Made by a program: the position numbers and the translations under genes. A DNA stretch of 64,000 nt from Gammaproteobacteria bacterium (GTDB lineage Bacteria; Pseudomonadota; Gammaproteobacteria; Acidiferrobacterales; SPGG2): positions 773 to 64,772 of the forward strand of contig JAOTYM010000008.1 of the NCBI GenBank assembly GCA_029861845.1, given 5' to 3'. Numbering within the stretch: position 1 is the stretch's first letter; every line of letters begins with the position of its first letter. The notes under the pieces were generated by a model that saw only the letters and a list, made by a program, of their open reading frames with translations, had not been told where the DNA came from and did not search any database. Below, piece by piece: positions 6,145 to 24,959 of this stretch.

Positions 6145-6221
6145 GGCTACGTAGCTCAGGTGGTTAGAGCACGGCACTCATAATGCCGGTGTCGGTGGTT
6201 CGAGTCCACCCGTAGCCACCA
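6145..6221 (+). tRNA. tRNA-Met (elongator, anticodon CAU)
   Basis: GGCTACGTAGCTCAGGTGGTTAGAGCA.. with anticodon arm CGGCA-CTCATAA-TGCCG, T-arm GGTTCGAGTCC and encoded CCA. It resembles E. coli metT-type elongator tRNA. Confidence 0.95.
6177..6202 (+). repeat. Direct repeat copy 1 (inside tRNA-Met, anticodon loop to T-arm); att-like core
   Basis: ctcataatGccggtgtcggtggttcg recurs at 24934-24959 with 25/26 identity in the same orientation. Confidence 0.8.
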
Positions 6222-6268
6222 ACTTAATCAACGCCTTACGTCACCTTCCCGAGTTCGTAAAATCGTGA

Positions 6269-7138
6269 GTGTGGGGATTTTGCGGGACTGCAGTGAATGT
6301 GAACACCGAGGAAGTCAAAAAAGTTGTCAAAGGTCGTTATGGCAAAGCCGCTGAAAGGGGTGGCGGCAAGGGATGCTGTTGCGCTACTGAGGTTAGCTCC
6401 AGTCTGAACTTTGCGACGGAGCATGGGCTTTATGGTCAGGAAGAACTTTCCCTGGTCCCTGAAATCGCTCGTAATCTTTCTAGAGGATGCGGTAACCCAA
6501 CGGGATTCGCTGATCTTCAATCTGGCGAGGTAGTCGTGGATCTCGGTTGCGGTGCAGGCATCGATGTCATTCTGGCCGCGCGTAAAGTAGGCCCCAGTGG
6601 AAAGGTCGTGGGCGTAGATTTTGCCCCCCAGATGATCGAGCGGGCAAAGCAAGCAGTGGTGGAGGCAGGGTTAAGCAATAGCGTCGAGTTTGTTGTTGCT
6701 GACATGGAGCAGCTTAATCTCCCAGACAGCCTTGCCGATGTGGTGACATCCAATTGCGTGATCAACTTATCTCCTGATAAAGACGCGGTGTATCGGCAAG
6801 CGTTCCGTATCCTGAAACCGGGTGGGCGGCTGGCTATCTCTGATATTGTCTTGACTGAGAAGATCGAACCTCACGTACAAGCACGCTTACAATCAACCTG
6901 GTCAGGCTGTCTGGGAGGAACTATCGCTGAGGAGAGTTATTTCGACATAATCAGCAAAGCGGGATTTAGACAAGTTAAGATCGTCGCTAGTCATGCCCTC
7001 GCGTCGCAGGAACTAGACGAAATGGTATGTTGTCCAGGGCCGGAATTCACTCCTGCCCCTGCGAAAGAGGATCTTGCTGTGGTGCAAGGGAAGGTGGTCA
7101 GCATCAAATTCACGGCGCTAAAACCACAAATCAGCTGA
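6269..7138 (+). CDS. arsM: Arsenite S-adenosylmethionine methyltransferase (ArsM-like)
   Basis: SAM-binding motif VVDLGCGAGID. Cysteines sit at the four positions typical of ArsM (GCCCA N-terminal cluster, RGCGNPT, SNCVINL, WSGCLGG). The start is ambiguous (GTG 6269 or GTG 6293). Confidence 0.8.
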   Translation: MWGFCGTAVNVNTEEVKKVVKGRYGKAAERGGGKGCCCATEVSSSLNFATEHGLYGQEELSLVPEIARNLSRGCGNPTGFADLQSGEVVVDLGCGAGIDVILAARKVGPSGKVVGVDFAPQMIERAKQAVVEAGLSNSVEFVVADMEQLNLPDSLADVVTSNCVINLSPDKDAVYRQAFRILKPGGRLAISDIVLTEKIEPHVQARLQSTWSGCLGGTIAEESYFDIISKAGFRQVKIVASHALASQELDEMVCCPGPEFTPAPAKEDLAVVQGKVVSIKFTALKPQIS

Positions 7139-7324
7139 TCCAAGCTAACGTCAAAAGTCTTACACCTAGATAGGGCAATCTAAAAGGATCGACCCCCTGG
7201 TCTCTCATCGGGTGGTCGCGAGATACACAGTCCAGTACTGCCTGCGACGGTTCAATAGATTACATGCGCCCGTGACATGAGTGTGTCGACGAATGTAGCG
7301 GTCCGAGGCTGGATCACCCTGTTT

Positions 7325-7945
7325 TCAATGCTTTCCATCACCCACTGGTAGTTTCGGACTCGCTGCTTGTGGACGTAATGGGGTTACCCGAGCACGTGAC
7401 ACAGAATCTTCGGTGCCGCTATGCCGGACGATGTCACCGGTGAGCAAATACAGCACATCTTCCGCGATGTTACAGGCATGATCACCGATACGTTCTAACT
7501 GCCGGCACACCGACAACATGAACACCGCCTGTTCGACGTTGTCGGGCTGCCTCCGAATTCTGTTGATCAATTCGTCGTAGAGTCTTTTGTTTAATTCATC
7601 CACCAGATCGTCGGTGCCGATCACTCCCTTTGCGATATCCGCATCTGTCTCTACGAATGCAAGTAGGCATTTGCGCAGCATTAGCTTTGCTTGCTTAGAG
7701 AGCTCAACGATTTCATCGGGTACCGGCACACGCTTCAATCCAGCCAGTTGTTCGGCACGCTCAGCGATGTTAACGGCATGGTCGCCGATGCGCTCTAGAT
7801 CATTGTTGATCTTCAATACTGCCACGATCAACCGTAGATCAGCCGCCACCGGTTGATGAAGTGCCAGCAGCTTTAGACATTCTTCTTCCAACTCGACTTC
7901 TCTGTCGTCGATTTGTTTGTCTCTGCTGATAACGGCGCGCGCCAA
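7325..7945 (-). pseudogene. PhoU-domain protein, N-terminally truncated
   Basis: Two PhoU repeats (LERIGDHAVNIAE and LERIGDHACNIAE). The reading frame begins inside the first repeat (..ARAVISRDKQIDDREVELEEECLKLLA), with only a TTG as its first codon. It abuts the nuclease fragment at about 7945. Confidence 0.6.
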
Positions 7946-8324
7946 GATCCGTTTAGCGGGGATTGATGCGCCCGAACGAAAGCAGGCGTATGGACTCGCT
8001 TCTCGTAAGCATTTAGGTTCGATCGTGGCCGGTAAACAAGTAACAGTTGAATACCGAAAGCGGGATCGACATGGCCGTATTGTGGGGAAAGTCCTACTTT
8101 ACGCCGTTTACCATACAGACATCGATGGGATCGACGTGTGTCTCGAACAAGTTAAGGCGGGGTTTGCCTGGCACTACAAGAAGTACCAGCATGAGCAAAG
8201 TAGAGAAGACCAAAGGCTCTACGCAGAGGCCGACATCAGGGCGCGAAATGACAGACTAGGCCTGTGGCGAGAGAACAATCCTAATCCGCCTTGGGAGTAT
8301 CGACGGCTGCATAGATCGGAATAG
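7941..8324 (+). pseudogene. Thermonuclease (SNase-like) gene, C-terminal fragment (copy A)
   Basis: AKIRLAGIDAPERKQAYGLASRKHLGSIVAGKQVTVEYRKRDRHGRIVGKV...GLWR is the SNase/OB-fold core without a signal peptide or N-terminal strand. The first ~93 nt are nearly identical to 16867-16959. Confidence 0.75.
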
Positions 8325-8718
8325 TAAGGAAGATCTCGATTTCTCCACCTTTGTTGTTTCGCAGAAATATGTTGTTTTCTGCTGGTTTTCCCTTTTAATT
8401 AGGTCGGTATCCCAGAAAAGACGTACCCCGACGGGACGATGATGACGACGCGCTACGTCGGCACCTCGCGCAAAGGCGCGGGACAGAAGGTGCAGGAGTG
8501 GAGCGGCACAACCGAGCTCGTATCGGGCACGGGGCGGTTCAAGGGCGCAAAGGGACAGGGCACCTATGCCGGTGGCCGGTATGCCAATGGATGGCGGTAA
8601 CCGACTGGGAACTCAAGGCGACGCTGGCCCAGTAGGCCTTCCGCGCCCGTCATGCTCGCCGCAGTAAATCGCCCATCGCAGCTCAGCCGCGATGGGCGAA
8701 ACGGCGTAACGACGAGAG

Positions 8719-9132
8719 TTAGCGCGGGCGCGACAACGCGTCGATCACGGGGCAATCGGGGACTTTGCCTTGATCACATTGTGACACCATCTCCTTCAAT
8801 ACTTTCTCTAATCTTTTGAGATCCGCGATGCGCCCACGCACACTGCCGAGATGTTCCGAGGTGATGGCCTTAACTTGCGAGCAGGTGTAACCGCCACCAT
8901 CAACGAAGCGCAGCAGATCGCGTACTTGCGCAAGGCTAAACCCAAGCGCCCGGCTTCGGCAGATGAAGGTGAGCCGCTTCAGATGCTTCTCCGCATAGAG
9001 CCGATGGCCGCCTGGGCTGCGGGGTGGTTTCGGCATCACACCGATGCGTTCGTAGTAACGGATTGTTTCAATGTTGCACCCGGTACGCGCCGATAGTGCC
9101 CCAATGGTCGTTGCCGGTGATATTGCGTCCAT
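8719..9132 (-). CDS. merR: MerR-family metal-responsive transcriptional regulator (Hg-type cysteine pattern)
   Basis: N-terminal HTH TIGALSARTGCNIETIRYYERIG. Cysteines are at YTCSQV and CDQGKVPDC (C-x7-C) in the dimerisation and metal-binding helix region. It is divergent from a merF-like gene across a MerR-type operator. Confidence 0.8.
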   Translation of the reverse strand: MDAISPATTIGALSARTGCNIETIRYYERIGVMPKPPRSPGGHRLYAEKHLKRLTFICRSRALGFSLAQVRDLLRFVDGGGYTCSQVKAITSEHLGSVRGRIADLKRLEKVLKEMVSQCDQGKVPDCPVIDALSRPR

Positions 9133-9136
9133 GGCC

Positions 9137-9167
9137 TTGAACCTGTAGTTGCTACAGGTTTTATAGT
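9137..9167 (+). promoter_or_regulatory. MerR-type promoter: -35 TTGAAC, 19-bp spacer containing the dyad ACCTGTAG-TTG-CTACAGGT, -10 TATAGT
   Basis: Read directly: TTGAAC (9137-9142), 19-nt spacer (9143-9161), TATAGT (9162-9167). A perfect 8-bp inverted repeat spans 9141-9159. An over-long 19-bp spacer with a central dyad is the hallmark of MerR-family activated promoters. Confidence 0.75.
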
Positions 9168-9206
9168 GACACTGTGAAGATCCGCGGGCAACTCCGGGAG
9201 ACGGTG

Positions 9207-9425
9207 ATGAAAAACCAAACGCTGTTTCGTACTGGCATGGTCGGGGCGGTCGTTGCGGCGGTGTGCTGTTTTACACCCGCGCTGGTGATCTTGCTCGGGG
9301 CGGTCGGTCTATCCGCCGCGCTAGCGTGGTTGGACTACGTTCTGTTTCCGGCGCTGGCGCTCTTTGTTGGCATCACTATCTATGCAGTGCTGCGAAGACA
9401 CGGCGAACCTGCAGAAGGAAAGTGA
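9207..9425 (+). CDS. merF: MerF-type mercuric ion transport membrane protein
   Basis: A 72-aa two-TM protein with vicinal Cys in TM1 (AAVCCFTPALVILLGAVGLSA) and LDYVLFPALA, which is very MerF-like. It lacks the second C-terminal CC pair. RBS ggagacgg lies before ATG 9207. Confidence 0.8.
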   Translation: MKNQTLFRTGMVGAVVAAVCCFTPALVILLGAVGLSAALAWLDYVLFPALALFVGITIYAVLRRHGEPAEGK

Positions 9426-9436
9426 ACGTCAATCCA

Positions 9437-9562
9437 ATGACAGCGGTTAACATGCACTCCACCTTGACCTGCCCTGAATGCGGACACCAAAAGACTGAGA
9501 CCATGCCGACCGATTCTTGCTTGTTCTACTCCGAGTGTGAGCAATGCAAGACCTTGTTACGT
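9437..9562 (+). pseudogene. Small Cys-rich mer-associated protein, N-terminal fragment (GDCCVxC-family-like)
   Basis: MHSTLTCPECGHQKTETMPTDSCLFYSECEQCKTLLR resembles the first half of the small CxxC...CxxC proteins found in mer loci. The expected GDCC motif is absent and the frame runs into unrelated sequence. Confidence 0.45.
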
Positions 9563-9782
9563 GTCCCTCGTGAATATTCGTCCGAATACACTCTATTGCC
9601 TTTTTCCGAAGGCCCCGAGATATCTTTGCTACCGCACCGTGCCAAAAAGCTGGATCGGGGTCACCGCATCGGTCTTTGCCATTGTGCGGGTCAGACCGGC
9701 TTAATGAATCAGATGCGTCTCTATGACCCGGTATACGATAGCAAAAACCCGACCCAGTTGTTCGTAGGCGAAACCCCGGCCG

Positions 9783-11690
9783 TTATCGTTCGCGCGCGTG
9801 CAAGTTGCCGTGAAAATTCTGGACATACAGCCCGTCGAGGATTTGGACAGTGAGGTAGTGGTGGAACAAGATGTTGATCTGCCGTTTCCGTCGGCAGTCA
9901 AAGAACAATATCCTGAACCAAACGCGCAGAAGCAGGTAGATCCAGTAGTTGAAGATACCGGCTCGTCGGATGGCGACTTTGGACAGGTAGCGATCCAAGA
10001 GCCGATCGAGCGATGACGTTTCTCCGCGCCGGATCCAAAACGGCGGTGCGGCATACGGCCACTTTTTTCGGTCACAAATCGAAGCGGTTATCAGATCGCG
10101 AAAGGCTTTTCGCAACACATATTTCTCGACCCCATCGCGAACCTTCACGTTGTCGGGCATGCGGCGCGTCTTTTCGAACAGGTGATGGTCCAAGAACGGC
10201 GTGCGGCCTTCGATGGAATGCCCCATTTCCGCTCGGTCGCCCAACGTGCCCAGGATGTACGGCGCCAGTATCCCTTTGAATACGAAGTATTGGATGCGCC
10301 TCACCAAAGGCAGTTGATCGGTCTTATCCCGTTTCACGCGTCTGCGCAGCGCTTCAATTGCCGGTTGTGAACGTAGACGCACCGAATGTTTGGGATGAAG
10401 CATCGCCCGAAAGAGTTGTTGCACCCACGAGGACATGGTGAGCGCATGTTCTTCGATCGGTACAAAGCCCAGTGCTTCGATCAATCGCCGAGCCCGGCGG
10501 CCGATTGGCGCTTTACGAATCTTGGTTTTGTTGTACATCTGATCCGACATCGCGCCGCTCCCAGGTTGGAAGTATAAATACCCCAGGAACGTCTCGTCCG
10601 ACCCTTCGCCGGTCAACACGACTTTTACGTGTTCCGCCGCTAGGCGCGATAAGCAATATTTGCCGACTCCGTGAAAATTGAAAAACGGAAGCTCGCTCAC
10701 CCACAGCGCGTCTTCCGTGTTTTCCAAAAGCACGTCGTGTGTGCAGGTCACCGAGTGGAACTCCGCGCCAATCTTTTCCGCCATCTCTTTAGACAGCTCG
10801 TACTCATTAAATGCGTCGTCCTCCGGAAACTCGATGTTGAACACCTTGACCGGGCCGGCGTGATACTTGGCAACGGTCCCCGCGACTATTGCGGAGTCAA
10901 TGCCGCCGCTGAGGTACACGCCCACGGGCACATCCGCCCGGAGCCGCAGGCGCACGGCTTCATCGAACGCCTCACGCACCGCGGCGATATCGCGAGCATC
11001 ATCGACAGGGTCGGTTTCGGCGGGCAAGCCGAGGTCCCAGTACTCACGGACCGCGTGGTGTCCGGTGGTCAAATCCACTTCGAACGCGCATCCGGGTGGT
11101 ACCACCCGGATGCCCTCGAAGATCGAATCCGGCATCGCTCCGCTGAGGTAATCCCGGACCGCTACCACATCGATGGCCGGGGCATGGCGCCCCGTCGCGA
11201 AGATGGCCTTCGCTTCCGATGCGAACAGGTATTTGCCGCCGCCTTCATGAAGGTACAACGGCTTGATGCCGAACCGGTCGCGCAACGCGATGACCCGCCG
11301 CCGCACCTTATCGTACAGCACGAACGCGAACTCGCCCCGCAGATACTCGGTGAACCCAACGCCATGTTCTTCGTAGAGATGAATAATTACTTCTGAGTCG
11401 CTTTGCGTTGTGAAGGCGTGCCCTTGTGATTCGAGCTCTTCACGTATGCGTTCGAAATCGTAGATTTCACCGTTGCATACCAACACCACATTTTTGTCTT
11501 CCGAGAATAGCGGTTGCGCGCCGCCCTCTAGGTCGATAATTGAAAGCCGCGTGTGCCCCAGTCCTACACCACTTTCAGCGTCTACGTATGCGCCTGTGTC
11601 GTCGGGGCCCCGGTGGCGCAGCGACTCGACGGCGCCCAAGATTTGCGCTTCGTCCAGGTGATGATTCACCGATGCAAGAATGCCGCACAT
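9783..11690 (-). CDS. asnB: Asparagine synthase (glutamine-hydrolysing), AsnB family
   Basis: N-terminal nucleophile MCGI.., RHRGPDD, NGEIYDF, and the PP-loop-type SGGIDS in the synthetase domain. 635 aa. Confidence 0.9.
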   Translation of the reverse strand: MCGILASVNHHLDEAQILGAVESLRHRGPDDTGAYVDAESGVGLGHTRLSIIDLEGGAQPLFSEDKNVVLVCNGEIYDFERIREELESQGHAFTTQSDSEVIIHLYEEHGVGFTEYLRGEFAFVLYDKVRRRVIALRDRFGIKPLYLHEGGGKYLFASEAKAIFATGRHAPAIDVVAVRDYLSGAMPDSIFEGIRVVPPGCAFEVDLTTGHHAVREYWDLGLPAETDPVDDARDIAAVREAFDEAVRLRLRADVPVGVYLSGGIDSAIVAGTVAKYHAGPVKVFNIEFPEDDAFNEYELSKEMAEKIGAEFHSVTCTHDVLLENTEDALWVSELPFFNFHGVGKYCLSRLAAEHVKVVLTGEGSDETFLGYLYFQPGSGAMSDQMYNKTKIRKAPIGRRARRLIEALGFVPIEEHALTMSSWVQQLFRAMLHPKHSVRLRSQPAIEALRRRVKRDKTDQLPLVRRIQYFVFKGILAPYILGTLGDRAEMGHSIEGRTPFLDHHLFEKTRRMPDNVKVRDGVEKYVLRKAFRDLITASICDRKKWPYAAPPFWIRRGETSSLDRLLDRYLSKVAIRRAGIFNYWIYLLLRVWFRILFFDCRRKRQINILFHHYLTVQILDGLYVQNFHGNLHARER

Positions 11691-11774
11691 GTGGTTACCT
11701 TCGCGGGGAGTAGATTGGATGGCAAACTTGCGTTGCCACAGCCGGGAGAGTCTAACGCCCTGACGCGCGGACTT

Positions 11775-12026
11775 CTATCTCAACTCTTTCAGCGTGAACT
11801 TGAGTCCACGCGATTCGCCGGCGCGATCGGCATTCATTGTCATCGAATCGCCAATGAACGATCTCCAGATTTCGAAGTCAATATCGTTTGATGTGATTAC
11901 ACGCCGGCCGTTAAACGGTGTGATCATGTCGCGCGCCTTCAAGCCTGAGCGGTGTGCTGGAGCGTTTTCAAGGATCTCGGTGGCGTTGCAACCTTCCGTC
12001 GCAATAATCCCGAATTTCTGCAACAC
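11775..12026 (-). CDS. Small PDZ-domain protein (possibly a remnant of a larger protease gene)
   Basis: FGIIATEG..ATEILENAPAHRSGLKARDMITPFNGRRVITSNDID...MTMNADRAGESRGLKFTLKEL fits the PDZ pattern (G-x-G, sPA..aGL..GD.I..vNG..v). It has a non-ATG start, and a stop codon lies just upstream in the same frame. Confidence 0.45.
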   Translation of the reverse strand: MLQKFGIIATEGCNATEILENAPAHRSGLKARDMITPFNGRRVITSNDIDFEIWRSFIGDSMTMNADRAGESRGLKFTLKELR

Positions 12027-12134
12027 GTAAGGCTGTTACGCCGCAATATCGACCACCCGGTAACCGGCAACCAATACCAACGATTGCAATTTTCTCGTCA
12101 AGAAAGCACGCGTTAATACTGCTGGTCTGAATCT

Positions 12135-12461
12135 TTAGGTTTCCCCCAGACCGAGCACGAAGGTGCCCGCACGATGCCCAGAGGTCATAGCATCCAAATG
12201 CAGACGTTGAAGCATTTGTACCTTGAGGGTCCGGAACGGGTCGTCTGCCGCCGGCCAAGAGATTTTCACCTCGCCGACGCCCGACAAGAATTCTCGAAAA
12301 CTGAAATCTGGCAGGCCGTTTTGTGCGCAGGAGCCGCCGGGAGTCGGCCAAGTGCCGTCGTTCATCGTGGCCTCAGGTAAGGTCCGCTTGCGCATCAGAA
12401 AGCCGCCCCTTGCCCATCGTGCATCACAGCTCAGATTATCTATCGAAACACGGAAGACCAA
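12135..12461 (-). CDS. Hypothetical protein (weak call)
   Basis: The ORF starts 3 nt after the pentapeptide gene stop on the same strand. There are internal ATGs (MRKRTLPEATMNDGTWPTPGG..). I recognised no family. Confidence 0.25.
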   Translation of the reverse strand: MVFRVSIDNLSCDARWARGGFLMRKRTLPEATMNDGTWPTPGGSCAQNGLPDFSFREFLSGVGEVKISWPAADDPFRTLKVQMLQRLHLDAMTSGHRAGTFVLGLGET

Positions 12462-12463
12462 CC

Positions 12464-14116
12464 TTATTTTTGCCTCAGCTCATTCGCCTTCCGCTCCGCA
12501 GGCCCAATAACCAATTCGGACAGCACCTCGATTAGCTGCTGTTGACTTTCGTACTCATACAGCTCCAGCACCCACGGGTAGCGCTTGAAGTGCTCAAACA
12601 TGGCGTATTCCGCTTCACTTGCCATGATCAACGGCTGCACCGGCACCGAGGGCAAATCAGGCACGATACTTTGCAGCTCCTGTGGGATGCTTTTCGCGTC
12701 GGTGATGTCAGCGATTACAAAGCGGGCCATGTGGGCTAGAGTGGATATTGTCTCGGTGAGATCACGGGTTGCGGGTTTCTCGAAGTCGAAGAGAACCGGG
12801 CTGTAGTCGCGCTTTCGCAGCTCTTCCCGCAACGCATCGATGACCCTCTTTCGCTCCTCTGTGAAACGGCCAAGGATCAAAACCACTTTCGAGGTGATGG
12901 TGTCTATGACGTGCCGGATCTTTTCGTTTGCCAGTAGCAGGTAGATGAACTGTGCCACCTCAAGATTGTCCGTGGTGATTTCCGGTTCGCCTTCTGCTGT
13001 GATAACCAGATCCGACTGAATGGCTCCTTCTAAGCATACGTTCCAAGCAGAGACACCGTAAATGCGGCAACCCGTTAGATCCCCACCTTTCAGGATTGTT
13101 TCTGTCAGCGTAGCCCGTTCTAAACAGGCACCTTGTAGCTTCGCGTCTCTAAGGTTTGCAGCGCTTAAATCGGCTCTGCTGAGATCCGCTTTTATAAGAA
13201 TGGCGTGACTAAGATCGGCACCTCGGAGCCCCGCTTCAACGAGATTCGCATCGCTGAGGTCCCACCTAGCAAAGCTCTGGTGACCTTCTTCAGAGTTTAC
13301 AATCTCCCAGACGGCCCTCCCCTTGCTATCGATCTTCGTACTTGTATCTATCTGAGCACCGCGGAGCTCTGCCTGGTGAATACTTGATCCGGTGAGGTCT
13401 GCACCCTGAAGATTCGCACGCCGAAGATTTGCCGTTCTGAGCTGCGCGCCTCTGAGGCTTGCCTGCAATAGGTCTGCGCCGCGCAAATCCGCCTCATTCA
13501 AAATAGCCTCCGTGAGATCCGCTCCGACCAAATTTGCTTCACGCAAATCCGCTCCGCTCAAGTCCGCGTTTTTGAGGTTTGAGCGTAGATCTGCCTCGCG
13601 CAGGTCAGACTTCACTAGAATCGCGTGGTCTAGAAACGCTCCACTAAAGTCTACTTTGCTGAGCACTGCTCCACTCAAGTCCGCCTTGGAGAAAACCATA
13701 TCCCTGAAATTCGCTTCACTCAAGTCGATTTTTCTTAGGTCTCTCCCCTTAGCAGGGTGAGTAGAGACCTCCCATATGAGCCGGAACTTGGGCCCCATCT
13801 GAGTAGCGCTGTCTAATTGGGACCACTGAAGACGGGCCCCTGTCAAATCGGCGCCCAGTAGGTTCGCTCCACGAAGGTCCGCATCCCGAAAATACGCCCA
13901 GCGAAGGTCCGCACGTGTCAAATCCGCCCGGCGAAGGTCCGCATCTGTCAAATCCGCCCGGCGAAGATCTGCTTCGCGAAGGTCTGCCCCGCTGAGCTTG
14001 GCCTTACGTAGGCTCGCACCCCTCAGGTCAGGTTGACTGTTCGGATTCTGATCACGCCACCTATTCCAGGCAGCTACGTCGTCTCGCAGAAGTCTTGAAT
14101 GATCTTCATTTCCCAT
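12464..14116 (-). CDS. Pentapeptide-repeat protein with a non-repeat C-terminal alpha/beta domain
   Basis: Three blocks of A(D/N)LxX repeats are separated by two homologous linkers (..KFRLIWEVS.. and ..KGRAVWEIVN..). The last ~150 aa (VVLILGRFTEERKRVIDALREELRKRDYSPVLFDFEKPATRDLTETISTLAHMARFVIADITDAKSIPQELQSIVPDLPSVPVQPLI..) are not repeats. Confidence 0.85.
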   Translation of the reverse strand: MGNEDHSRLLRDDVAAWNRWRDQNPNSQPDLRGASLRKAKLSGADLREADLRRADLTDADLRRADLTRADLRWAYFRDADLRGANLLGADLTGARLQWSQLDSATQMGPKFRLIWEVSTHPAKGRDLRKIDLSEANFRDMVFSKADLSGAVLSKVDFSGAFLDHAILVKSDLREADLRSNLKNADLSGADLREANLVGADLTEAILNEADLRGADLLQASLRGAQLRTANLRRANLQGADLTGSSIHQAELRGAQIDTSTKIDSKGRAVWEIVNSEEGHQSFARWDLSDANLVEAGLRGADLSHAILIKADLSRADLSAANLRDAKLQGACLERATLTETILKGGDLTGCRIYGVSAWNVCLEGAIQSDLVITAEGEPEITTDNLEVAQFIYLLLANEKIRHVIDTITSKVVLILGRFTEERKRVIDALREELRKRDYSPVLFDFEKPATRDLTETISTLAHMARFVIADITDAKSIPQELQSIVPDLPSVPVQPLIMASEAEYAMFEHFKRYPWVLELYEYESQQQLIEVLSELVIGPAERKANELRQK

Positions 14117-14594: not shown

Positions 14595-14605
14595 TGGCGG
14601 AGTAA

Positions 14606-15560: not shown

Positions 15561-15602
15561 GGCCTGGTTTAGGTATGCGGCTTCGATGAATCGCAGTTGA
15601 TC

Positions 15603-18613: not shown

Positions 18614-18743
18614 GACCCCGAGCCGTCCTTCCACTTCGCGGGTTCCGATGCCCGTTTTCTTGGGTCGCCTGCAGTTGGACGATGCATATCGCCTGAATCT
18701 CCGTTATATTCAACCAGCTCCAACCTAAAGAGGAGGTATCAAA

Positions 18744-19589
18744 ATGTTCGGACGTGTGTTGCGGCAGCTTTCGTTAGTGATCGCGCTCTTACTGACGCTT
18801 GTGATCGCCGCTCCGGCTTCGGCCGTCGAGATGACGTTTTACGGTAATCAGCACTTCAAGTTCGTTTCCGATGAAGGCAAGGTCATCCTCATAAATCCCT
18901 GGGTCAAGGGTAACAAGGATGCCCCGATGACCCTCGATTCCTACAAAAAGGGCGACGTGGATTTGATTCTTACTACGTCGGGGCATGGAGATGACCAGGG
19001 CAACGCAGTCGAGATCGCGGCGCGTACCGGTGCAACCATCTTCACCGTGGCCGAGCTTGGGGGCTGGATGCAAAGCCAGATCGAGAAGTTCGGCGGCTCC
19101 AAGAAGCAGATTTACCGAGGTGCCATCAGCGGCCGTTATAAAGTGGGAAACGTCGCGGTGCAGCTTATTCAGGCCGCCCATGGCACCGGCATCAGCACCG
19201 GGAAGGAAGACCATCCCGCGGGTTACTACGGAGGACCGGCATCCGGTTCGGTGATTACCTTCGAGAGTGGCCTTAGGGTTTTGATGGCCGGCAGCACAGG
19301 GCTTTCCATGGAGTTGCAGCTTTTCGGCATGCGCTTTCAACCGCACGTCGCCTTGGTGCCGATCGCCGGACGGTTCATGATGCATCCGGACGACGCGGCC
19401 TTCGCCACCAAACTGCTGATGACCGACAACCCCAATCTCAAGACGGTTGTTCCGCAACACCACCGCATTAAGGGGCGCCCCTCATGGATGGGGACACCGG
19501 CTGAGTTCGAGGCGGAGATCAAGAAACTTGGGCTCAAGGTCAACGTGCTATCCCCGGAGGTTGGAAAGACCTACGCCCTATCCAAGTAA
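18744..19589 (+). CDS. Secreted MBL-fold metal-dependent hydrolase (UPF0173-like)
   Basis: Signal peptide ..LLLTLVIAAPASA, HGDD-type metal motif (LTTSGHGDDQGN), strong RBS aagaggagg. Confidence 0.75.
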   Translation: MFGRVLRQLSLVIALLLTLVIAAPASAVEMTFYGNQHFKFVSDEGKVILINPWVKGNKDAPMTLDSYKKGDVDLILTTSGHGDDQGNAVEIAARTGATIFTVAELGGWMQSQIEKFGGSKKQIYRGAISGRYKVGNVAVQLIQAAHGTGISTGKEDHPAGYYGGPASGSVITFESGLRVLMAGSTGLSMELQLFGMRFQPHVALVPIAGRFMMHPDDAAFATKLLMTDNPNLKTVVPQHHRIKGRPSWMGTPAEFEAEIKKLGLKVNVLSPEVGKTYALSK

Positions 19590-19905
19590 AGTCGAAGCCT
19601 GTTTTATGGCATCGTCGCCGGATGTAGTCAATGCCGGGCGATTTCCCCTATAGGGGAGACTCTTTTTGCAAGTGCCGGGATGGCACGTATCACACTACGC
19701 TGGAGCGCCTAGACTGAGCCAATCAACATAGTTGGCTGCAATGCCGGGTAGAGCCTCCCTTGCACGAAGCCGCGGCCGGACAGCGCAGGTGCGCGCGTTT
19801 ATTTCGCGGCCTTACCTGCCCCCTCGATCGCCTCGCCTGCCGCGGTGACCGACTCTGCGTGCTTACCCTGTTCGTGGAGCGCCTGTCGATTTGTTGAATA
19901 GAGGA

Positions 19906-20257
19906 ATGCATGTGAAAGCGATCGTATACACAAAATACGGACCACCGGATGTTCTTCAGCTCAAAGAGGTAGCAAAACCTATTCCTAAAGACAATGAAGT
20001 CTTGATAAGAATTCATGCGGCAACAGTAACAAAAGGGGACTTCAATGATAAGCAGCAAGAAAGTAATATTTGAGTTTGCAAGCTACAAGACTGAAGATTT
20101 AATTTTCCTCAAAGAGCTTATTGAGGCGGGAAAGCTAAAATCAGTCATAGATAGACGCTATCCGTTGGAACAAGTTGCCGAGGCTCACAGGTATGTCGAC
20201 AAAGGACACAAGAACGGGAATGTAGTCATAACTGTGGAAAACAATAGCAAAACCTAG
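19906..20257 (+). pseudogene. Zinc-type alcohol dehydrogenase / quinone oxidoreductase (MDR family) with a large internal deletion
   Basis: The N-terminal ~45 aa (V)[43 protein letters not shown] run almost directly into the C-terminal ~60 aa ..[39 protein letters not shown] in another frame. The Rossmann core is missing. Confidence 0.7.
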
Positions 20258-20263
20258 AAAATC

Positions 20264-20323
20264 GCTGCACCCAACCGCTATTCCGCTGCGCTTCATAGCG
20301 CCAGGTGAGCTTTGTCGTTATGA
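20264..20323 (+). repeat. attC-like site 1
   Basis: ACCCAAC (20269-20275) ... GTTATGA (20317-20323). Internal pairings are GCTGCACC/GGTGAGC and CGCTAT/ATAGCG. It starts 12 nt after the stop codon. Confidence 0.5.
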
Positions 20324-20509
20324 GTAAAGACAGACAAACTGAATCGGAGACAGTGGCTCAAGATAGGTTTTGGCGCTACTGCGGGTGCCATGTCAACTAA
20401 AATATTTGGTAGCGAGTCCACACAAGGAGAATGCCGAACAGCCCAATATAAAGCCATGGGCCCGTTTTACCCGAACCAACCCCAGCTCCAAACCGAAAAC
20501 ATTAAATGA
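20324..20509 (+). pseudogene. N-terminal remnant of a Tat-exported intradiol-dioxygenase-like protein
   Basis: The frame reads ..NRRQWLKIGFGATAGAMSTKIFGSESTQGECRTAQYKAMGPFYPNQPQ..: a twin-arginine signal plus a GPFYP motif. It has no proper start (ATG 20320 is in another frame) and ends overlapping the next gene's start. Confidence 0.4.
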
Positions 20510-20811
20510 ATAATAAAATTAAAATACCAGAAGAACGGAATGAGACGATAAGAGAGGAATTATTGAGGTGGCTAGAGGGAAGAGAGCTTGCAATTGGAGA
20601 GTTGTCCAAAGTGGTAGGTAAATCTGAAAAAGAGATTTACGATCATCTAGAACAACTTCAGAAGTCAGGGCTTCTTGTAATAATTCCCGCTGAATGTGGC
20701 AAATGTGATTATATATTCGAATCGCGTGAGAAAGTAAAAAAGCCTAGTAAATGTCCAAAATGTAAGAGTACCTATATACAACAACCATTATTTACTGTGT
20801 CGTCAAGATAA
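20506..20811 (+). CDS. Small transcriptional regulator: winged HTH fused to a C-terminal zinc ribbon
   Basis: REELLRWLEGRELAIGELSKVVGKSEKEIYDHLEQLQKSGLL is a wHTH, followed by CGKC..(17 aa)..CPKC. Confidence 0.6.
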   Translation: MNNKIKIPEERNETIREELLRWLEGRELAIGELSKVVGKSEKEIYDHLEQLQKSGLLVIIPAECGKCDYIFESREKVKKPSKCPKCKSTYIQQPLFTVSSR

Positions 20812-20912
20812 CAAGACGAATTAAGCCTAGCAATGCAATCGAAGACGGACCAGAACTTCCCCCCAAGTAGTGGACACCGCTGATGTGGGCGTTATAAAGC
20901 TCCGAGTTATGG
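20806..20912 (+). repeat. Possible attC-like site 2 (weak)
   Basis: AGATAAC overlaps the stop codon and GTTATGG overlaps the next start codon. Internal pairing is poor and an alternative R' GTTATAA lies at 20891. Confidence 0.3.
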
Positions 20913-21577
20913 AAAACTTTGAGCTGATTATTTTTGATTGCGATGGTGTTCTTGTTGATAGCGAGCGGGTTGCCAACGAAGTGTTTGCGAAGATATTGAA
21001 GGAAGAATGTGGATTTTCACTTAGCCTAGAAGATATGTTCGAAACGTTCGTTGGGCGCGCTGCCGGGCAGTGTATGGAAATTATAGAGGATATGCTCGGC
21101 GCCAAACCTCCTCCAGGCTTGGAAGTGCGTTATAGAAAAGATATAAATAAGGCATTAAAGGAATCCGTCACGGCCGTTAATGGCATTGAGCACGCGTTAG
21201 CCGAGATTTCGATTCCATACTGCGTGGCCTCAAGTGGCTCCTACGAAAAAATGCAAACCACATTAGGTAAAACTAAATTACTCGAACTCTTCGAGGGTAA
21301 GCTCTATAGTGCGTCAGACGTTGCGCGTGGAAAGCCATTCCCTGATATATACCTTCACGCGGCTGAAAGCATGGGTTGCTCGAGTCCTCGCAGATGCCTA
21401 GTCATTGAGGATAGCCCATTAGGGGTTGAAGGTGCCGTTGCCGCTGATATGGTGGTGTTTGGTTATGCAGAACTAGTGAAAGAGGAAAAGCTTATCAAAG
21501 CTGGTGCACACCATACTTTTAGCGATATGAGTAATTTGGCTCATGAGATTGCGACTTATGAACACGCTGCCTTATGA
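20909..21577 (+). CDS. HAD-superfamily hydrolase (subfamily IA, phosphatase / beta-phosphoglucomutase-like)
   Basis: Motif I FDCDGVLVDS, motif III K (GKPFPDIY) and motif IV (EDSPLGVEG). Confidence 0.85.
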   Translation: MENFELIIFDCDGVLVDSERVANEVFAKILKEECGFSLSLEDMFETFVGRAAGQCMEIIEDMLGAKPPPGLEVRYRKDINKALKESVTAVNGIEHALAEISIPYCVASSGSYEKMQTTLGKTKLLELFEGKLYSASDVARGKPFPDIYLHAAESMGCSSPRRCLVIEDSPLGVEGAVAADMVVFGYAELVKEEKLIKAGAHHTFSDMSNLAHEIATYEHAAL

Positions 21578-21637
21578 CAAACGGTTTAACAGGAGCGTCA
21601 CGAAGAACACGCCGCCCGGTTAACCGAGATGTTAGGC
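21569..21637 (+). repeat. attC-like site 3
   Basis: The 3' half GGTTAAC-CGAGAT-GTTAGGC is a classical L'-spacer-R'. The 5' partner CGGTTTAAC has one extra T. The R'' position is ambiguous because it overlaps the stop codon. Confidence 0.55.
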
Positions 21638-21707
21638 GAACATGAGAGGAGGAGCGGTGGCTAGGCGCTGCGCGATGCAGGCGAATCAGAGTTCACATCT
21701 CTAATGA

Positions 21708-22172
21708 ATGAAGGGGAAGGCGCTCGACCAGATGGCAGCGCAGGCGTACCAACGTGAGGAGGCGAAGATGAAATCCGACACCCGATGGCTACGAATTTCC
21801 TACTGGGCGGGTGCGATCATCGACGGACTCGCAGCAGTTTCAATGCTTGCCACAGCTATCTTCGGCGTTGGCGGCATGCTGTCGGGTTTCTCCCCGGGTG
21901 CCGAGTATCGATATGCCATGGGTCTTGGCGGCTCCCTGATGGCCGGATGGACCGCGCTGTTGATCTGGGCGGACAGAAAGCCATTGGAGAGGAAAGGCGT
22001 CCTTCTCCTGACAGTGTTCCCTGTAATAACGGGCATTGTGCTCACAGGAATCACGGCTGTTCTGGCCGGTCTCGTTCCTCTCTTCAAGATGCTGCCAGGG
22101 ATCATCGTACCGACAGTCGTGGGTGTTCTCATGACCTTCGCCTACCTGGACGCCAGGCAGACGCAAGAATGA
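21708..22172 (+). CDS. Hypothetical membrane protein (4 predicted TM segments)
   Basis: Hydrophobic segments WAGAIIDGLAAVSMLATAIFGV, GGSLMAGWTALLIW, VLLLTVFPVITGIVLTGITAVLAG and IIVPTVVGVLMTFAYL. The likely start is the internal ATG (MKSDTRW). No family recognised. Confidence 0.5.
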   Translation: MKGKALDQMAAQAYQREEAKMKSDTRWLRISYWAGAIIDGLAAVSMLATAIFGVGGMLSGFSPGAEYRYAMGLGGSLMAGWTALLIWADRKPLERKGVLLLTVFPVITGIVLTGITAVLAGLVPLFKMLPGIIVPTVVGVLMTFAYLDARQTQE

Positions 22173-22261
22173 GTAGCCCAAAGAAAGACGCCACAAGCTA
22201 TGCCGGCCCTGTGAGGCCGTCAGTGCATTGGGTGGAACCGGCTTGGTGCCATCGGCGATCC

Positions 22262-22332
22262 GCCAAACCAGGGGTTGCAGCTGACGGGGCCAGCGCCGAT
22301 CATAGCCCCGCAGCTAAACGCCGGCGTTACAT
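22262..22332 (+). repeat. attC-like site 4
   Basis: GCCAAAC-CAGGG-GTTGCAGCTGACGGGGC-(14 nt)-GCCCCGCAGCTAAAC-GCCGGC-GTTACAT. The long L-stem has extrahelical bases and 5/6-nt spacers. Confidence 0.65.
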
Positions 22333-22446
22333 TTGGATAGAAGAGAAATGGACAACTTGGCTGCAGATGGGACTTACTATTTCAGTTGAGTTGGCGCAAA
22401 TGATGAGAAGCACAGAGCGATATGCGAGATCTAGGAGATTCATTAA

Positions 22447-22839
22447 GGATATCTCTGCGCACACGCCATTTACAACCTAGCAGAGCGGAATATTGAAGGA
22501 GCGTCAATCAGTTCGTATGGAGAAGCTTTGTATTGGGGGGTAGCCGCATTTTCTACAGCCGGAATTGCTGATACGCCGATATCTGGTACTGCACAGTTAG
22601 TTGGTGGCTTATGGATTGTTCTTGGTTCAGTGTTGTTCTTCGGAACCATTGTAGCAACTGTTACGAGCTATTTTATGAGACCAATGCAGCGCCCTCATAA
22701 AAAGATAATTGAGACGATAGAGTACAACCTCGAACAGTTAGATGCTCTGACGCTCGACGAGCTCGATTTATTAAAGGAAACAGTTGACACACCGATCGTT
22801 CATGTCGAGCGCTTAAAGGAAAAACGGTCAAGCGGTTAG
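22447..22839 (+). pseudogene. Potassium-channel-like pore domain protein lacking TM1, with a degenerate selectivity filter
   Basis: ..AIYNLAERNIEGASISSYGEALYWGVAAFSTAGIADTPISGTAQLVGGLWIVLGSVLFFGTIVATV is a pore helix plus inner helix. The filter reads STAGIAD instead of T(V/I)GYGD. There is no ATG and only a TTG at 22528. Confidence 0.5.
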
Positions 22840-22909
22840 TCGAAGTCTAACATACCGCCTGTCGGAGGCTCTTGGCTCGCATGCTCACGATGCAATTGAA
22901 AGCGATGAA

Positions 22910-22999
22910 ACCTAACAAGCAGCTTGAGTTCGCGCGCTACACGCGCCGGAGCGGCAAAACGCTGCGTGCTTTACCGGCCGTTCAGCCTTCTTGTTGGTC
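22910..22999 (+). repeat. attC-like site 5
   Basis: ACCTAAC-AAGCA-GCTTGAGTTCG...CGTTCAGCC-TTCTT-GTTGGTC. An alternative longer version starts at GTCTAAC (22845). Confidence 0.6.
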
Positions 23000-23045
23000 G
23001 GGTGCCAAGTGCGCCAGACGCTGATGCTAGACCAAGGGGGCTGTA

Positions 23046-24026
23046 ATGAAAACGCCTGACATTCCACAAGAGGATGAAGCTCGACTCAAGACGCTTAGGT
23101 CACTCAAGATCTTGGATACCCCGCCAGAGGAACGTTTTGATCGTCTGACGCGGATGGCGAAGCGGATGTTCGAGGTGCCTATCGCACTTGTCAGCCTTGT
23201 TGATGAAAACCGTCAGTGGTTCAAGTCCTGTGTTGGTCTCCACGTTAGTGAAACACCACGAGATATTTCATTTTGTGGGCATGCTATTCTCGGTAACGAA
23301 ATATTCTTCATTCCCGACGCAACAAAGGACGAACGCTTTGCAGACAACCCACTGGTTTTGAATGAACCCAATGTTCGTTTTTATGCCGGATGCCCACTGA
23401 GATCCTTGAACGGGAGCAAACTAGGGACGCTGTGCATTATTGACCAGAAACCGCGACGTCTTAGCGAGCAAGACCTCGAAGCATTGAAAGACCTTGCATC
23501 AATGGTGGAGCGCGAACTTGCAGCAGTACAACTGGCGACACTAGACGAGCTTACCGATATAACAAACAGGAGAGGCTTTATGATGCTCGCCCAACACAGC
23601 CTTAACCTCAGTCGTCGACAGGGAATTCCTGCGTCGTTGGTTTTCTTCGACCTAAACGAATTCAAATTGATCAATGACAAGTTTGGGCACGCTGAGGGAG
23701 ATAGGGCATTAATTGCCTTTGCTGACCAAATGAAAAACGCGTTCCGTAATTCGGACCTCTTCGCGCGGCTAGGAGGCGATGAGTTCGTCGTATTGCTCAC
23801 CAATACATCAAAAAAAATCGCAGAGAACATTATCGCGAAATTTCAGCAGTCTTTAGAGGAATACAGTCAAGAAGTTAATCGCGGGTATAATATTTCGTTC
23901 TCTCATGGCATCGTCGAATTTAGTCCTGACAAGCACCATACGGTTGAAGCATTGCTGGCCGACGGGGACTGGCTGATGTATGAACACAAAAGGCAAAGCA
24001 GTAATGTTGACAGCGAAAGGGGTTAG
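23046..24026 (+). CDS. GAF-domain diguanylate cyclase (GGDEF)
   Basis: The N-terminal GAF-like domain (VSLVDENRQWFKS..FCGHAI..) is followed by a GGDEF domain with an intact RLGGDEFVVLL active site. Confidence 0.9.
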   Translation: MKTPDIPQEDEARLKTLRSLKILDTPPEERFDRLTRMAKRMFEVPIALVSLVDENRQWFKSCVGLHVSETPRDISFCGHAILGNEIFFIPDATKDERFADNPLVLNEPNVRFYAGCPLRSLNGSKLGTLCIIDQKPRRLSEQDLEALKDLASMVERELAAVQLATLDELTDITNRRGFMMLAQHSLNLSRRQGIPASLVFFDLNEFKLINDKFGHAEGDRALIAFADQMKNAFRNSDLFARLGGDEFVVLLTNTSKKIAENIIAKFQQSLEEYSQEVNRGYNISFSHGIVEFSPDKHHTVEALLADGDWLMYEHKRQSSNVDSERG

Positions 24027-24043
24027 TAGCCTTTCTGTGGTCT

Positions 24044-24115
24044 GTCCAACCAGTCATGCCAGCGGACTAACAAAAAACGTCGCTTTCTGCCGTCGGCGGA
24101 ATTAGAAAGTTATCC
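24044..24115 (+). repeat. attC-like site 6
   Basis: GTCCAAC-CAGTC-ATGCCAGCGGAC...GTCGGCGGAAT-TAGAAA-GTTATCC. Its R'' is complementary (6/7) to the R' of site 5. Confidence 0.6.
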
Positions 24116-24127
24116 AGCTAGAGAAAA

Positions 24128-24688
24128 ATGAGTAAAGAACGGATTTCAAACGCAACTCTCCTAATCATCGACGTACAGAAGGGATTTGACAACGAAATTT
24201 GGGGGACCCGTAACAATCTTGATATGGAGGCAAACCTCTCCAGAATACTCGAGCATTGGCGAGGCCTTGGTCGGGCTGTGGTACATGTTCAGCATTGCTC
24301 GGTCGAGCCGAATTCCCCTCTACGTCCGGGACTCCCCGGCTGCCAATTTAAGGACGAAGTGCGACCGATGGACGGCGAACCGGTTTACCAGAAGATCGTT
24401 AACAGTGCGTTCATTGGAACGACACTCGAAGAGGACCTCAAGAAGAGCGGAATTCGGGAGCTTATAATTGTCGGTTTGACTACGAATCATTGCATATCTA
24501 CGACTGCTCGGATGGCGGGCAACCTTGGATTTGAAACCTTCGTAGTGTCAGACGCAACAGCGACCTTTGATAGAATTGGACCGGACGGCACGCACTATTC
24601 TGCCGAACAGATCCACGAAATCTCTCTCGCCAGTTTACATAACGAATTCGCGACTGTAGTAGATACTGACTCGGTAATTGCGTCCTAA
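24128..24688 (+). CDS. Isochorismatase-family cysteine hydrolase
   Basis: LLIIDVQKGF (Asp), K in YQKIVNSAF, and Cys in GLTTNHCISTTAR. This is the typical isochorismatase/nicotinamidase triad. Confidence 0.85.
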   Translation: MSKERISNATLLIIDVQKGFDNEIWGTRNNLDMEANLSRILEHWRGLGRAVVHVQHCSVEPNSPLRPGLPGCQFKDEVRPMDGEPVYQKIVNSAFIGTTLEEDLKKSGIRELIIVGLTTNHCISTTARMAGNLGFETFVVSDATATFDRIGPDGTHYSAEQIHEISLASLHNEFATVVDTDSVIAS

Positions 24689-24694
24689 TACGCT

Positions 24695-24793
24695 GGATAA
24701 CAAAACTTTCGAGCGGATCACGTGTGATGACAAAAAAATCAGAGGAATAAATGTAGTTTTTCCTTGTGCCCTCACTCAAAATAACCGTTAGAT
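24695..24793 (+). repeat. attC-like site 7 (last recognisable)
   Basis: GGATAAC-AAAAC-TTTCGAG...CTCAAAA-TAACC-GTTAGAT. Its R'' is the exact reverse complement (7/7) of the R' of site 6. Confidence 0.65.
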
Positions 24794-24933
24794 GCCACGC
24801 CCAATCGTGAATATGAACCGCGCGGGACTTCTGCGGGAGCGAGCGGTCAAAGTACTGCAAGGTCTCGCAAATCGAGCAACGAGCGTCCCACGGTTTCTTC
24901 ACTAAATCACTATGCTACATTTTTTATTTTGCC

Positions 24934-24959
24934 CTCATAATACCGGTGTCGGTGGTTCG
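24934..24959 (+). repeat. Direct repeat copy 2 (partial tRNA-Met duplication); att-like island boundary
   Basis: ctcataatAccggtgtcggtggttcg is 25/26 identical to 6177-6202. The flanks on both sides do not match the tRNA. Confidence 0.8.

Follow-up and report, generated by a model that had tools for sequence, protein, structure and literature searches.

In the attP site of phage lambda, arm-type integrase sites flank the core and the int gene ends beside the P' arm. Genomic islands integrated in tRNA genes are catalogued by Islander (Hudson, Lau and Williams 2015, PMC4383910). 10.1101/2020.11.02.365908 describes integrase subfamilies that use anticodon-loop, T-loop and 3'-end sublocations within the tRNA gene, and cites ICEAfe1 of Acidithiobacillus ferrooxidans, for which a 19-bp anticodon-loop attB suffices. 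CIMEs (cis-mobilizable elements) and tandem accretion have been described for the ICESt1-related elements of Streptococcus thermophilus (Pavlovic et al. 2004; reviewed in PMC5704250). Here, we compare these systems with an 18.7-kb accessory region in the window, by which we mean the whole 64,000-nt stretch of DNA that was analysed. The region belongs to an ordinary and well-known kind of feature, and its two ends are made up as follows.

6145-6221, + strand: elongator tRNA-Met, anticodon CAT (ARAGORN); the regenerated target gene (attL)
6174-6221, + strand: attL core, the block in common with the distal copy, from the anticodon stem/loop to CCA
6228-6314, - strand: 3'-end remnant of a tyrosine integrase gene, 28 codons and a stop, translation ending in LQSRKIPTLTILRTREGDVRR
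6270-6287, + strand: degenerate P'-side heptamer pair, TGTGGGG-ATTT-TGCGGGA, starting 48 nt past the tRNA end
24821-24933, + strand: P arm of the family type, on the island side of attR
24821-24838, + strand: heptamer pair of the P arm, CGCGGGA-CTTC-TGCGGGA, 113 nt before the core
24931-24959, + strand: attR core part 1, displaced 3' half of tRNA-Met spanning the anticodon loop to the T-loop TTCG
24960-25009, + strand: insert that splits the displaced half, a hairpin-forming piece of a REP-like repeat
25010-25021, + strand: attR core part 2, acceptor 3' strand and CCA (CCGTCGCCACCA)
25112-26394, + strand: MFS transporter, first flanking gene and start of the conserved right flank

The tRNA-Met gene is the sole elongator tRNA-Met in the 92%-complete draft genome, the other CAT tRNA being the initiator. 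A preliminary description of this DNA had reported a 26-nt segment of the gene repeated downstream in direct orientation, and both copies are indeed present on the + strand, exact at 6177-6202 and with one mismatch at 24934-24959, while 0 of 100 shuffles gave two matches. The repeat extends to 29 nt (6174-6202 versus 24931-24959, 27 of 29 bases identical). At up to three mismatches it has only two copies in the 4.47-Mb draft genome and is therefore not a dispersed repeat, a possibility which the description had set out for checking. It had also held that the distal copy stops short of the acceptor arm, but the copy in fact resumes past the 50-nt insert, at 25010-25021, where 11 of 12 positions match the tRNA's CCGTAGCCACCA. 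The sequence that comes next, CTTATCTCA, is the flank also found 3' of an intact tRNA half that precedes the MFS gene at the same position in two genomes of the same genus (G001:C259 and G002:C201). The insert forms a hairpin in a computed fold and aligns with a 235-nt element at tRNA-Met in G004; copies of this REP-like family occur in G001, G002 and G004, and the family is abundant in relatives. The odd distal geometry is an artefact of this insertion into the displaced half. As in Islander-type islands, a complete tRNA gene is matched at the opposite end by a directly oriented fragment of the same tRNA, which, allowing for the insert, runs from the crossover sublocation to the tRNA 3' end.

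The two ends were further compared with an element family that we define in this analysis by scanning species-representative genomes for the 17-mer TGCGGGACTTTTGCGGG. At 42 loci the 17-mer lies 45-72 nt past a full tRNA gene on the same strand (45-51 nt at most tRNA-Met loci), the tRNAs being Met, Arg, Phe, Pro, Lys, Ala, Thr, Ser and Asn. At these loci an oppositely oriented integrase gene, encoding 360-400 aa, has its 3' end overlapping the 17-mer, and the integrases form one protein family across 46 loci (Pfam Phage_integrase, E = 4.9e-15). In at least 21 further loci a tRNA 3' half is preceded by the 17-mer at a distance of about 115 nt, and a conserved arm fills the interval. The consensus heptamer pair, TGCGGGA-N4-TGCGGGA, is found both inside the last codons of the integrase, about 48 nt past the tRNA, and again about 113-115 nt upstream of the displaced half. 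Four variants of the pair occur, and within a single element the copies in the two arms vary together. The P'-side repeats fall within the last int codons, so that TCCCGCAAAAGTCCCGCA encodes an SRKSPA tail, and the integrase tails read SRKSPA, SGKTPA or SHRSHT according to the DNA variant. An intact comparator is present in G041, where tRNA-Met is followed by the integrase gene, 10.2 kb, the P arm, a half, a 3.5-kb islet and another half.

We tentatively raise the possibility that the heptamer pair and its variants constitute an undescribed, element-specific putative arm-type recognition site of very widespread tRNA-targeting integrases, an idea that we regard as somewhat doubtful at present. 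If it were true, the heptamer signature would mark the boundaries of islands of this family even where the integrase is lost, and a DNA-binding site would determine the sequence of the integrases' protein tail. The arm signature may help to map islands in metagenome bins.

In the window, a heptamer pair at the family distance of 45-72 nt past the tRNA, a second pair at about 115 nt before the half and an arm after the latter are all found, and the P arm is 71-75% identical to the arms of G001 and G002. In these features both island ends match the widespread family of tyrosine-integrase elements that insert at the anticodon loop. The arms of the window are degenerate, with three mismatches in the heptamer pair at +48 and two in that at -113. 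An arm model built from 21 foreign loci, with the motif and the tRNA part left out, scores highest, of all positions in the window, at 24856-24917 (+ strand, correct register), with E = 0.23 from the model alone.

Just past the tRNA, the 28-codon remnant at 6228-6314 aligns with the integrase C-terminus that adjoins tRNA-Met in G008 (ending in ALRSRKSPALTILRVRESGVRH and a stop) and also with full-length integrases of the family. A six-frame search finds no PF00589 integrase domain between the repeat copies, and tblastn with the family integrases gives no match within 6222-24933. The earlier statement that no integrase gene remains between the repeats accordingly stands for the integrase domain, while the last 28 codons do survive. 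An intact integrase gene beside the att site, as in Islander-type islands, is not found inside the island, and with only the 3' remnant left we class the locus as a decayed former member of that kind of island rather than an intact one.

A tRNA gene can acquire a partial copy next to it even where no mobile element is involved, and the check proposed in the description, for an empty site in which the MFS gene comes directly after tRNA-Met, found no such site in any genome searched. Both points would suit a local duplication or copying error of part of the tRNA, with the intervening DNA gathered independently. We nevertheless consider this very improbable, given a family-typical P arm at a family-typical distance before the distal copy, an integrase 3' remnant directly after the tRNA and the same architecture, with an intact integrase, at tRNA-Met in G041.

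The relatives are draft metagenome bins, in which contig breaks restrict the view. Positions 25009-29878 of the window are collinear with G001:C159 at 89.5% identity. In G001 only 1.6 kb, of unrelated sequence, separates the same two ends, and the flanks are syntenic at 89-92% identity, and in G002 different cargo lies beside the arm. The site is occupied in all three genomes of the genus, and in other members of the bacterial family the tRNA-Met gene is likewise accompanied by remnants of an integrase or by displaced halves. Left-arm identities (G000-G008 75%, G000-G001 60%, G001-G004 84%) contradict genus membership. Because G001 carries an unrelated 1.6 kb between the same ends, we regard the tRNA-Met site as a hot spot with changing cargo; within the bacterial family, to judge from these sequences, it is a hot spot at which both integrase lineages and cargo differ between genomes. 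Since no empty site was seen, we infer insertion from structure and replaced cargo rather than from presence and absence.

Taken together, 6222-24933 is very probably the decayed remnant of an island put into the anticodon loop of the elongator tRNA-Met gene by a tyrosine integrase. The arms, the integrase remnant and the comparison with G001 all favour the original proposal of a tRNA-Met-integrated element bounded by an att duplication. Under the family model, the element would have brought its own tRNA 3' half, which would now complete the working gene at attL, while the original half would have been displaced 18.7 kb downstream to attR. The integrase gene would have adjoined the tRNA on the opposite strand until a deletion removed all but its last 28 codons and clipped the start of arsM. 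A REP-like insertion would later have split the displaced half, and the cargo would have been rearranged through deletions, the insertion of an IS30 and, probably, insertions of the cassette type. Both the order of these events and the crossover point are inferred. The boundaries and history of the 18.7-kb accessory region are now fixed for this genome, and, given a known arm signature, a damaged tRNA half and a 28-codon integrase stub suffice to recognise a former island.

The cargo between the ends consists of the following features.

6299-7138, + strand: ArsM-type arsenite methyltransferase lacking about 12 N-terminal codons (Pfam, NCBIfam)
7325-7945, - strand: 5'-truncated phoU; the PhoU profile (212 positions) is matched from position 39
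7917-8324, + strand: 5'-truncated thermonuclease gene abutting phoU (SNase, PF00565)
8719-9132, - strand: merR of a partial mercury module
9174-9425, + strand: merF of the partial mercury module
9263-9853, + strand: GDCCVxC-domain ORF of the partial mercury module
9783-11690, - strand: AsnB-type amidotransferase
12464-14116, - strand: pentapeptide-repeat protein
14447-14579, + strand: orphan 5' fragment of a thermonuclease gene, multi-copy in the genome
14606-15448, - strand: EEP-family nuclease/phosphatase
15603-16508, - strand: repeat protein
16699-16958, + strand: second thermonuclease 5' fragment, cut by the IS30-type stub
about 16959-17264: IS30-type stub; the ORF at 16820-17212 (- strand) carries HTH_38
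17509-24688, + strand: gene string with low GC and atypical k-mers

In the mosaic of the cargo, truncated genes stand beside an IS30 stub and some sites that resemble attC. Comparison with a homologue in G005:C117 places a deletion breakpoint near 6296-6304, where arsM has become fused to the integrase remnant. The plus-strand string encodes a nitrilase, an MBL-fold hydrolase, a quinone-oxidoreductase remnant with an internal deletion (19913-20258), an ArsR-like regulator and a HAD phosphatase, then two unknown ORFs, a GAF-GGDEF protein and an isochorismatase-family hydrolase. Two stretches, 12-15 kb and 19-25 kb, have atypical k-mer usage, and the left 6 kb of the island is compositionally not atypical. 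The patchwork noted in the preliminary description is borne out for ArsM, MerR and MerF, three SNase copies or fragments and the HTH_38-bearing IS30 stub, and only in part for the cassette array. The island context accounts for the fragmentary state of the genes, among them those for arsenic methylation, mercury, nuclease and c-di-GMP signalling functions, since the island that holds them is decaying and occupies a hot spot of recombination.

The low GC and atypical k-mers of the plus-strand string (17.5-24.7 kb) would also be expected if the region were mainly the remnant of a chromosomal integron, a cassette array without its integrase, with cassette traffic explaining most of the content and the tRNA position secondary. 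Attention then turns on attC-like hairpins between genes, at 18458-18522 and 22911-23018: among nine intergenic candidates, those after the nitrilase gene and after the ORF at 22528-22839 fold like the control attC by a truncated intI on C127, two fold more weakly and five do not, which leaves two to four of the nine attC-like, and the genome-wide regex scans for attC are crude and unspecific. The thermonuclease fragment at 14447-14579 does adjoin the C127 intI remnant as well, but neither island nor window contains intI (TIGR02249 has no match in the window and its best match is the truncated intI on C127). This reading would moreover leave the att duplication, the arms and the integrase remnant without explanation, and we give it hardly any weight; at most it covers part of the cargo, which is compatible with the decayed tRNA-Met island.

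That island is probably immobile and unable to excise on its own, as far as its sequence indicates. Excision in trans would leave a broken tRNA-Met, and because this is the only elongator tRNA-Met seen in the draft, the island would be effectively fixed; decay of the displaced half can in this way lock an island into the chromosome. A still-working cis- or trans-mobilizable (CIME-like) element, with attL and attR recombinable by a related integrase elsewhere or by a newly adjacent element, is an unlikely alternative reading of the same ends. In its favour, the two att arms have been kept along with the anticodon loop of 7 nt, the genome has 16 or more P arms, elements have accreted in tandem at the tRNA-Phe of C40 and the tRNA-Met of G041, and contig C10 encodes an intact integrase of this family that is 52-55% identical to the tRNA-Met-associated integrases. 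However, that resident integrase sits at tRNA-Arg with another heptamer variant (TGCCGG), the heptamer pairs of the window are degenerate, a mismatch adjoins the overlap region, and excision would rebuild the sole elongator tRNA-Met from a damaged half.

Compared with the known systems, the element family resembles lambda in that each arm carries short direct repeats at a fixed distance from the core and the int 3' end abuts the P' arm, whereas its P'-side repeats lie inside the last int codons, its core is a tRNA half and the heptamers are putative sites. ICEAfe1, likened here by description only, shares recombination centred on the tRNA anticodon loop and differs from the island in being a large conjugative element. 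As in CIMEs, integration and transfer genes are lost from the island, and related elements stack at the same tRNA in G041 and C40. In contrast to CIMEs, the island carries neither a conjugation nor a mobilization module and shows no sign of being mobilized, its att sites are degenerate, and the host is an uncultured Acidiferrobacterales-type gammaproteobacterium rather than a firmicute as for those of ICESt1. Although the island departs from the anticodon-loop class of Islander in its 28-codon integrase, a fragment split by a 50-nt insert, heavily rearranged cargo and the lack of a known empty site, it shares with that class a regenerated tRNA at one end, a displaced fragment in direct orientation at the other, a block of identity from the anticodon loop to CCA and an integrase gene at the tRNA-proximal end.

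The window carries a tRNA-Met gene with a CAT anticodon at 6145-6221 (ARAGORN), and the 26-mer that the preliminary description reported as duplicated is indeed present, as a perfect copy at 6177-6202 and as a copy with one mismatch at 24934-24959, on the + strand both times; two matches were reached in 0 of 100 shuffles. The repeat is in fact 29 nt long with 2 mismatches (6174-6202 versus 24931-24959). Only two copies of the 26-mer exist at up to 3 mismatches in the whole 4.47-Mb, 275-contig draft genome, so it is not a dispersed repeat, the objection that had been named against an att duplication. The distal copy was also described as stopping short of the acceptor arm, which does not hold: it reads ...GGTGGTTCG to 24959, is followed by a 50-nt stretch (24960-25009) and resumes with CCGTCGCCACCA at 25010-25021, identical to the CCGTAGCCACCA of the tRNA at 11 of 12 positions, after which comes CTTATCTCA. 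G001 (contig C259) and G002 (contig C201), both from this genus, have the half unbroken at the homologous place (TCATAATGCCGGTGTCGGTGGTTCGAGTCCACCCGTAGCCACCA), with the CTTATCTCA flank and an MFS gene behind it. The unusual geometry of the distal copy is secondary damage, whichever way the 50-nt insert arose.

By itself the insert folds as a hairpin. It aligns with part of a 235-nt element located directly after the genuine tRNA-Met in another genome, G004, and G001 has a second haplotype (contig C159) whose displaced half is interrupted by a version of about 650 nt. The inner units of the element form hairpins and are members of a REP-like family that is matched 13-25 times in G001, G002 and G004. 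The insert may be what a window-specific microhomology deletion left of a larger element of the kind seen in G001:C159 and G004, or one REP unit may have inserted directly at GGTTCG; the second reading is on a par with the first because the identical GGTTCG/CCTTGGCGCTG junction is present at a different locus in G008 (contig C200). The small element of 235-650 nt is found at the following places.

G001:C159 (extract L016), 296-945: small element
G004:C65 (extract L018), 836-1069, minus strand: small element
Window, 24960-25009: corresponding insert

It occupies the extreme 3' end of tRNA-Met or of the displaced half, is flanked by a 16-20-nt duplication (CCACCCGTAGCCACCA), opens with ACTCGATT...TTCATGCAAC, includes the tRNA T-arm as an inverted copy and is packed with REP-like hairpins. 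It is polymorphic, given that the two haplotypes within the G001 bin differ.

Each arm of the island contains two heptamers 11 nt apart.

6270-6287: left-arm pair, TGTGGGG-ATTT-TGCGGGA
24821-24838: right-arm pair, CGCGGGA-CTTC-TGCGGGA

The consensus 17-mer occurs at at least 119 loci in species-representative genomes, a total that is itself little informative with about 70 chance matches expected in 596 Gb. At 42 loci among the matches listed, a complete tRNA on the same strand (Met, Arg, Phe, Pro, Lys, Ala, Thr, Ser or Asn) ends 45-72 nt before the 17-mer, which there overlaps the 3' end of an opposite-strand gene of 360-400 aa. These genes form one protein family (46 loci among the matches listed), identified by Pfam as a tyrosine integrase (E = 4.9e-15), for which no fitting curated NCBIfam family was found. 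At at least 21 further loci the 17-mer is followed, after about 115 nt, by a tRNA 3' half beginning in the anticodon loop; a conserved arm (...TGCA...TGCA...GCAACGGGCG...) and then an A/T-rich stretch lie in between. The window shows both arrangements, with heptamer pairs at +48 and -113. An arm profile built on 21 foreign loci, with the motif and the tRNA part trimmed away and the same-genus genome excluded, has no match in the window with default nhmmer filters; with the filters off, its best match in the 64-kb window is 24856-24917, in the expected register of the + strand, at a weak score (E = 0.23). From motif and placement, we assign both ends of the island to a recognisable family of heptamer-pair elements.

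The source draft genome holds at least 16 additional P arms, the arms that precede a displaced half. Several stand at tRNA-Phe halves in tandem, and C10, C40, C76, C228 and C259 are among its contigs with heptamer pairs. On C10 an intact 4.7-kb member at tRNA-Arg consists of the integrase, an AlpA-like gene and one cargo gene; because this element is oriented opposite relative to its tRNA, the 5' half of tRNA-Arg is duplicated instead. An uncultured gammaproteobacterium (G041; L145-L147) provides an intact comparator at tRNA-Met: the tRNA is followed by the integrase, 10.2 kb, a P arm and a 3' half, and then by a 3.5-kb islet with its own P arm and 3' half.

Within single elements the heptamer variant is identical in both arms.

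TGCGGGA: many elements
TGCGTGA: both arms of the G041 islet
TGCCGG(A/C): C10 of the source genome
TGTGTGA-GATC-TGTGTGA: C76, 12482 and 17909

On the tRNA side (P') the pair encodes the integrase tail (SRKSPA, SGKTPA or SHRSHT), which shifts with the DNA variant. Since both arms share a variant while the tail changes with it, the co-variation suggests putative arm-type protein-binding sites, more than mere codons. A full-text literature search found no paper on the 17-mer motif, and this family-wide arm signature is the one part of the results that may be new. A second instance of direct repeats within an integrase tail is found on C40 (L021, 1200-1260), where the 3' end of another integrase, adjoining a tRNA-Phe half, has five copies of TTGCTACCA at 11-nt spacing that translate as SKVVASGSKMVATGSK.

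The island was described as lacking an integrase, which is true of recognisable genes: PF00589 has no match between the repeats (Pfam, six frames), and tblastn with four full-length family integrases finds none in the island. A C-terminal stub is nevertheless retained on the minus strand at 6228-6314, found only through translation of the arm. It ends in LQSRKIPTLTILRTREGDVRR and a stop codon, and this tail aligns with the integrase C-terminus adjoining tRNA-Met in G008 (...ALRSRKSPALTILRVRESGVRH and stop) and with full-length integrases elsewhere. The start of arsM coincides with the end of the stub, and arsM is without about 12 N-terminal codons relative to its homologue in G005 (contig C117; 79% identity); apparently, a single deletion took the 5' portion of the integrase together with all DNA as far as arsM. 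Stub length and breakpoint vary among the source genome, G001 and G004. We rejected the integrases at 198-2296 as serving the island: prs, rplY, pth and ychF intervene, and they are part of a separate decayed recombination module immediately upstream of tRNA-Gln (2381-2455), in the same reading direction. That module combines an Integrase_1-type ORF and an excisionase-like ORF (HTH_17) with a frameshifted integrase that shares 25-35% identity with the heptamer-family integrases. Its layout is like that of the intact C10 island, in which the integrase points at the 5' end of the tRNA and the duplicated part is the 5' half.

Cargo of the island
6299-7138: ArsM-type methyltransferase
7325-7945: PhoU, 5'-truncated
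7917-8324: thermonuclease, 5'-truncated
8719-9853: MerR, MerF and GDCCVxC-domain ORF
9783-11690: AsnB-type amidotransferase
12464-14116: pentapeptide-repeat protein
14447-14579 and 16699-16958: two orphan thermonuclease 5' fragments
14606-15448: EEP-family enzyme
15603-16508: repeat protein
about 16959-17264: IS30-type stub, HTH_38 only
17509-18444: nitrilase
18744-19589: MBL-fold hydrolase
19913-20258: quinone oxidoreductase, internal deletion
20506-20811: ArsR-like regulator
20870-21577: HAD phosphatase
21785-22839: two unknown ORFs
23046-24026: GAF-GGDEF protein
24128-24688: isochorismatase-family hydrolase

In G001:C130 the two oxidoreductase pieces are separated by 640 nt; G004 has the gene whole. 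Thermonuclease (SNase) genes are multi-copy in the source genome (more than 15 copies or fragments, often clustered); besides those in the window (7917-8324, 14447-14579, 16699-16958) they are seen on C262, C218, C42, C36 and C127, and one adjoins a truncated integron integrase. Composition sets only part of the island apart: tetranucleotide frequencies depart from the norm at 12-15 kb (repeats) and at 19-25 kb (GC 0.47-0.50, z up to 3.4), and are typical in the flanks and the left 6 kb of the island.

A cassette array had been proposed within the cargo. The genome has, or once had, an integron, given that C127 (about 11000-13354) carries an integron integrase truncated to the N-terminal 146 of 315 profile positions, together with an attI-like site and one or more cassettes whose attC is canonical. 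Two home-made attC scans were discarded, one with zero matches and one unspecific that also missed the control site, and candidates were judged by folding against the C127 control attC. Hairpins at 18458-18522 and 22911-23018 fold like the control, two more do so weakly and five candidates do not. As just some fold in this way, an array is plausible for part of the cargo.

Relatives differ at this site. The G001 contig C159 (CAXMNC010000159.1), from an Acidiferrobacterales metagenome bin, is collinear with both window flanks (4620-6281 at 92%, 25009-29878 at 89.5%) and has only 1.6 kb from tRNA-Met to the displaced half; this DNA carries a single lipoprotein-like ORF and does not resemble the window cargo. 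The otherwise collinear contig is missing window 29878-33713 (about 3.8 kb), a second variable spot to the right of the island. In G002 yet another gene adjoins the P arm, and G005 has a third sequence type after tRNA-Met and an exact 50-nt copy of the half elsewhere. Left-arm identities (source genome to G008, 75%; source genome to G001, 60%; G001 to G004, 84%) are at odds with genus membership. These differences in cargo, stub breakpoints and left arms indicate that the tRNA-Met site is a hot spot for several integrase lineages, with cargo turning over. The predicted empty site, tRNA-Met followed directly by the MFS gene, was absent from all 40 relatives searched, and MFS homologues of other genera (G004:C10, G006:C85) lie away from tRNA-Met; insertion is hence inferred from structure.

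The island has no recombinase, and mutations have altered its heptamer pairs as well as the base adjoining the overlap region. Its excision is probably harmful, given that tRNA-Met would be rebuilt from the damaged half and that, in the 92%-complete draft, the initiator is the one other tRNA with a CAT anticodon. For these reasons the island is best seen as a fixed fossil; a related integrase could in principle still rescue it, as in the CIME scenario (PMC5704250), but this is unlikely. The island has the standard architecture of Islander tDNA islands (PMC4383910), uses the anticodon-loop sublocation known for such islands (10.1101/2020.11.02.365908) and is an ordinary decayed member of a known island kind.
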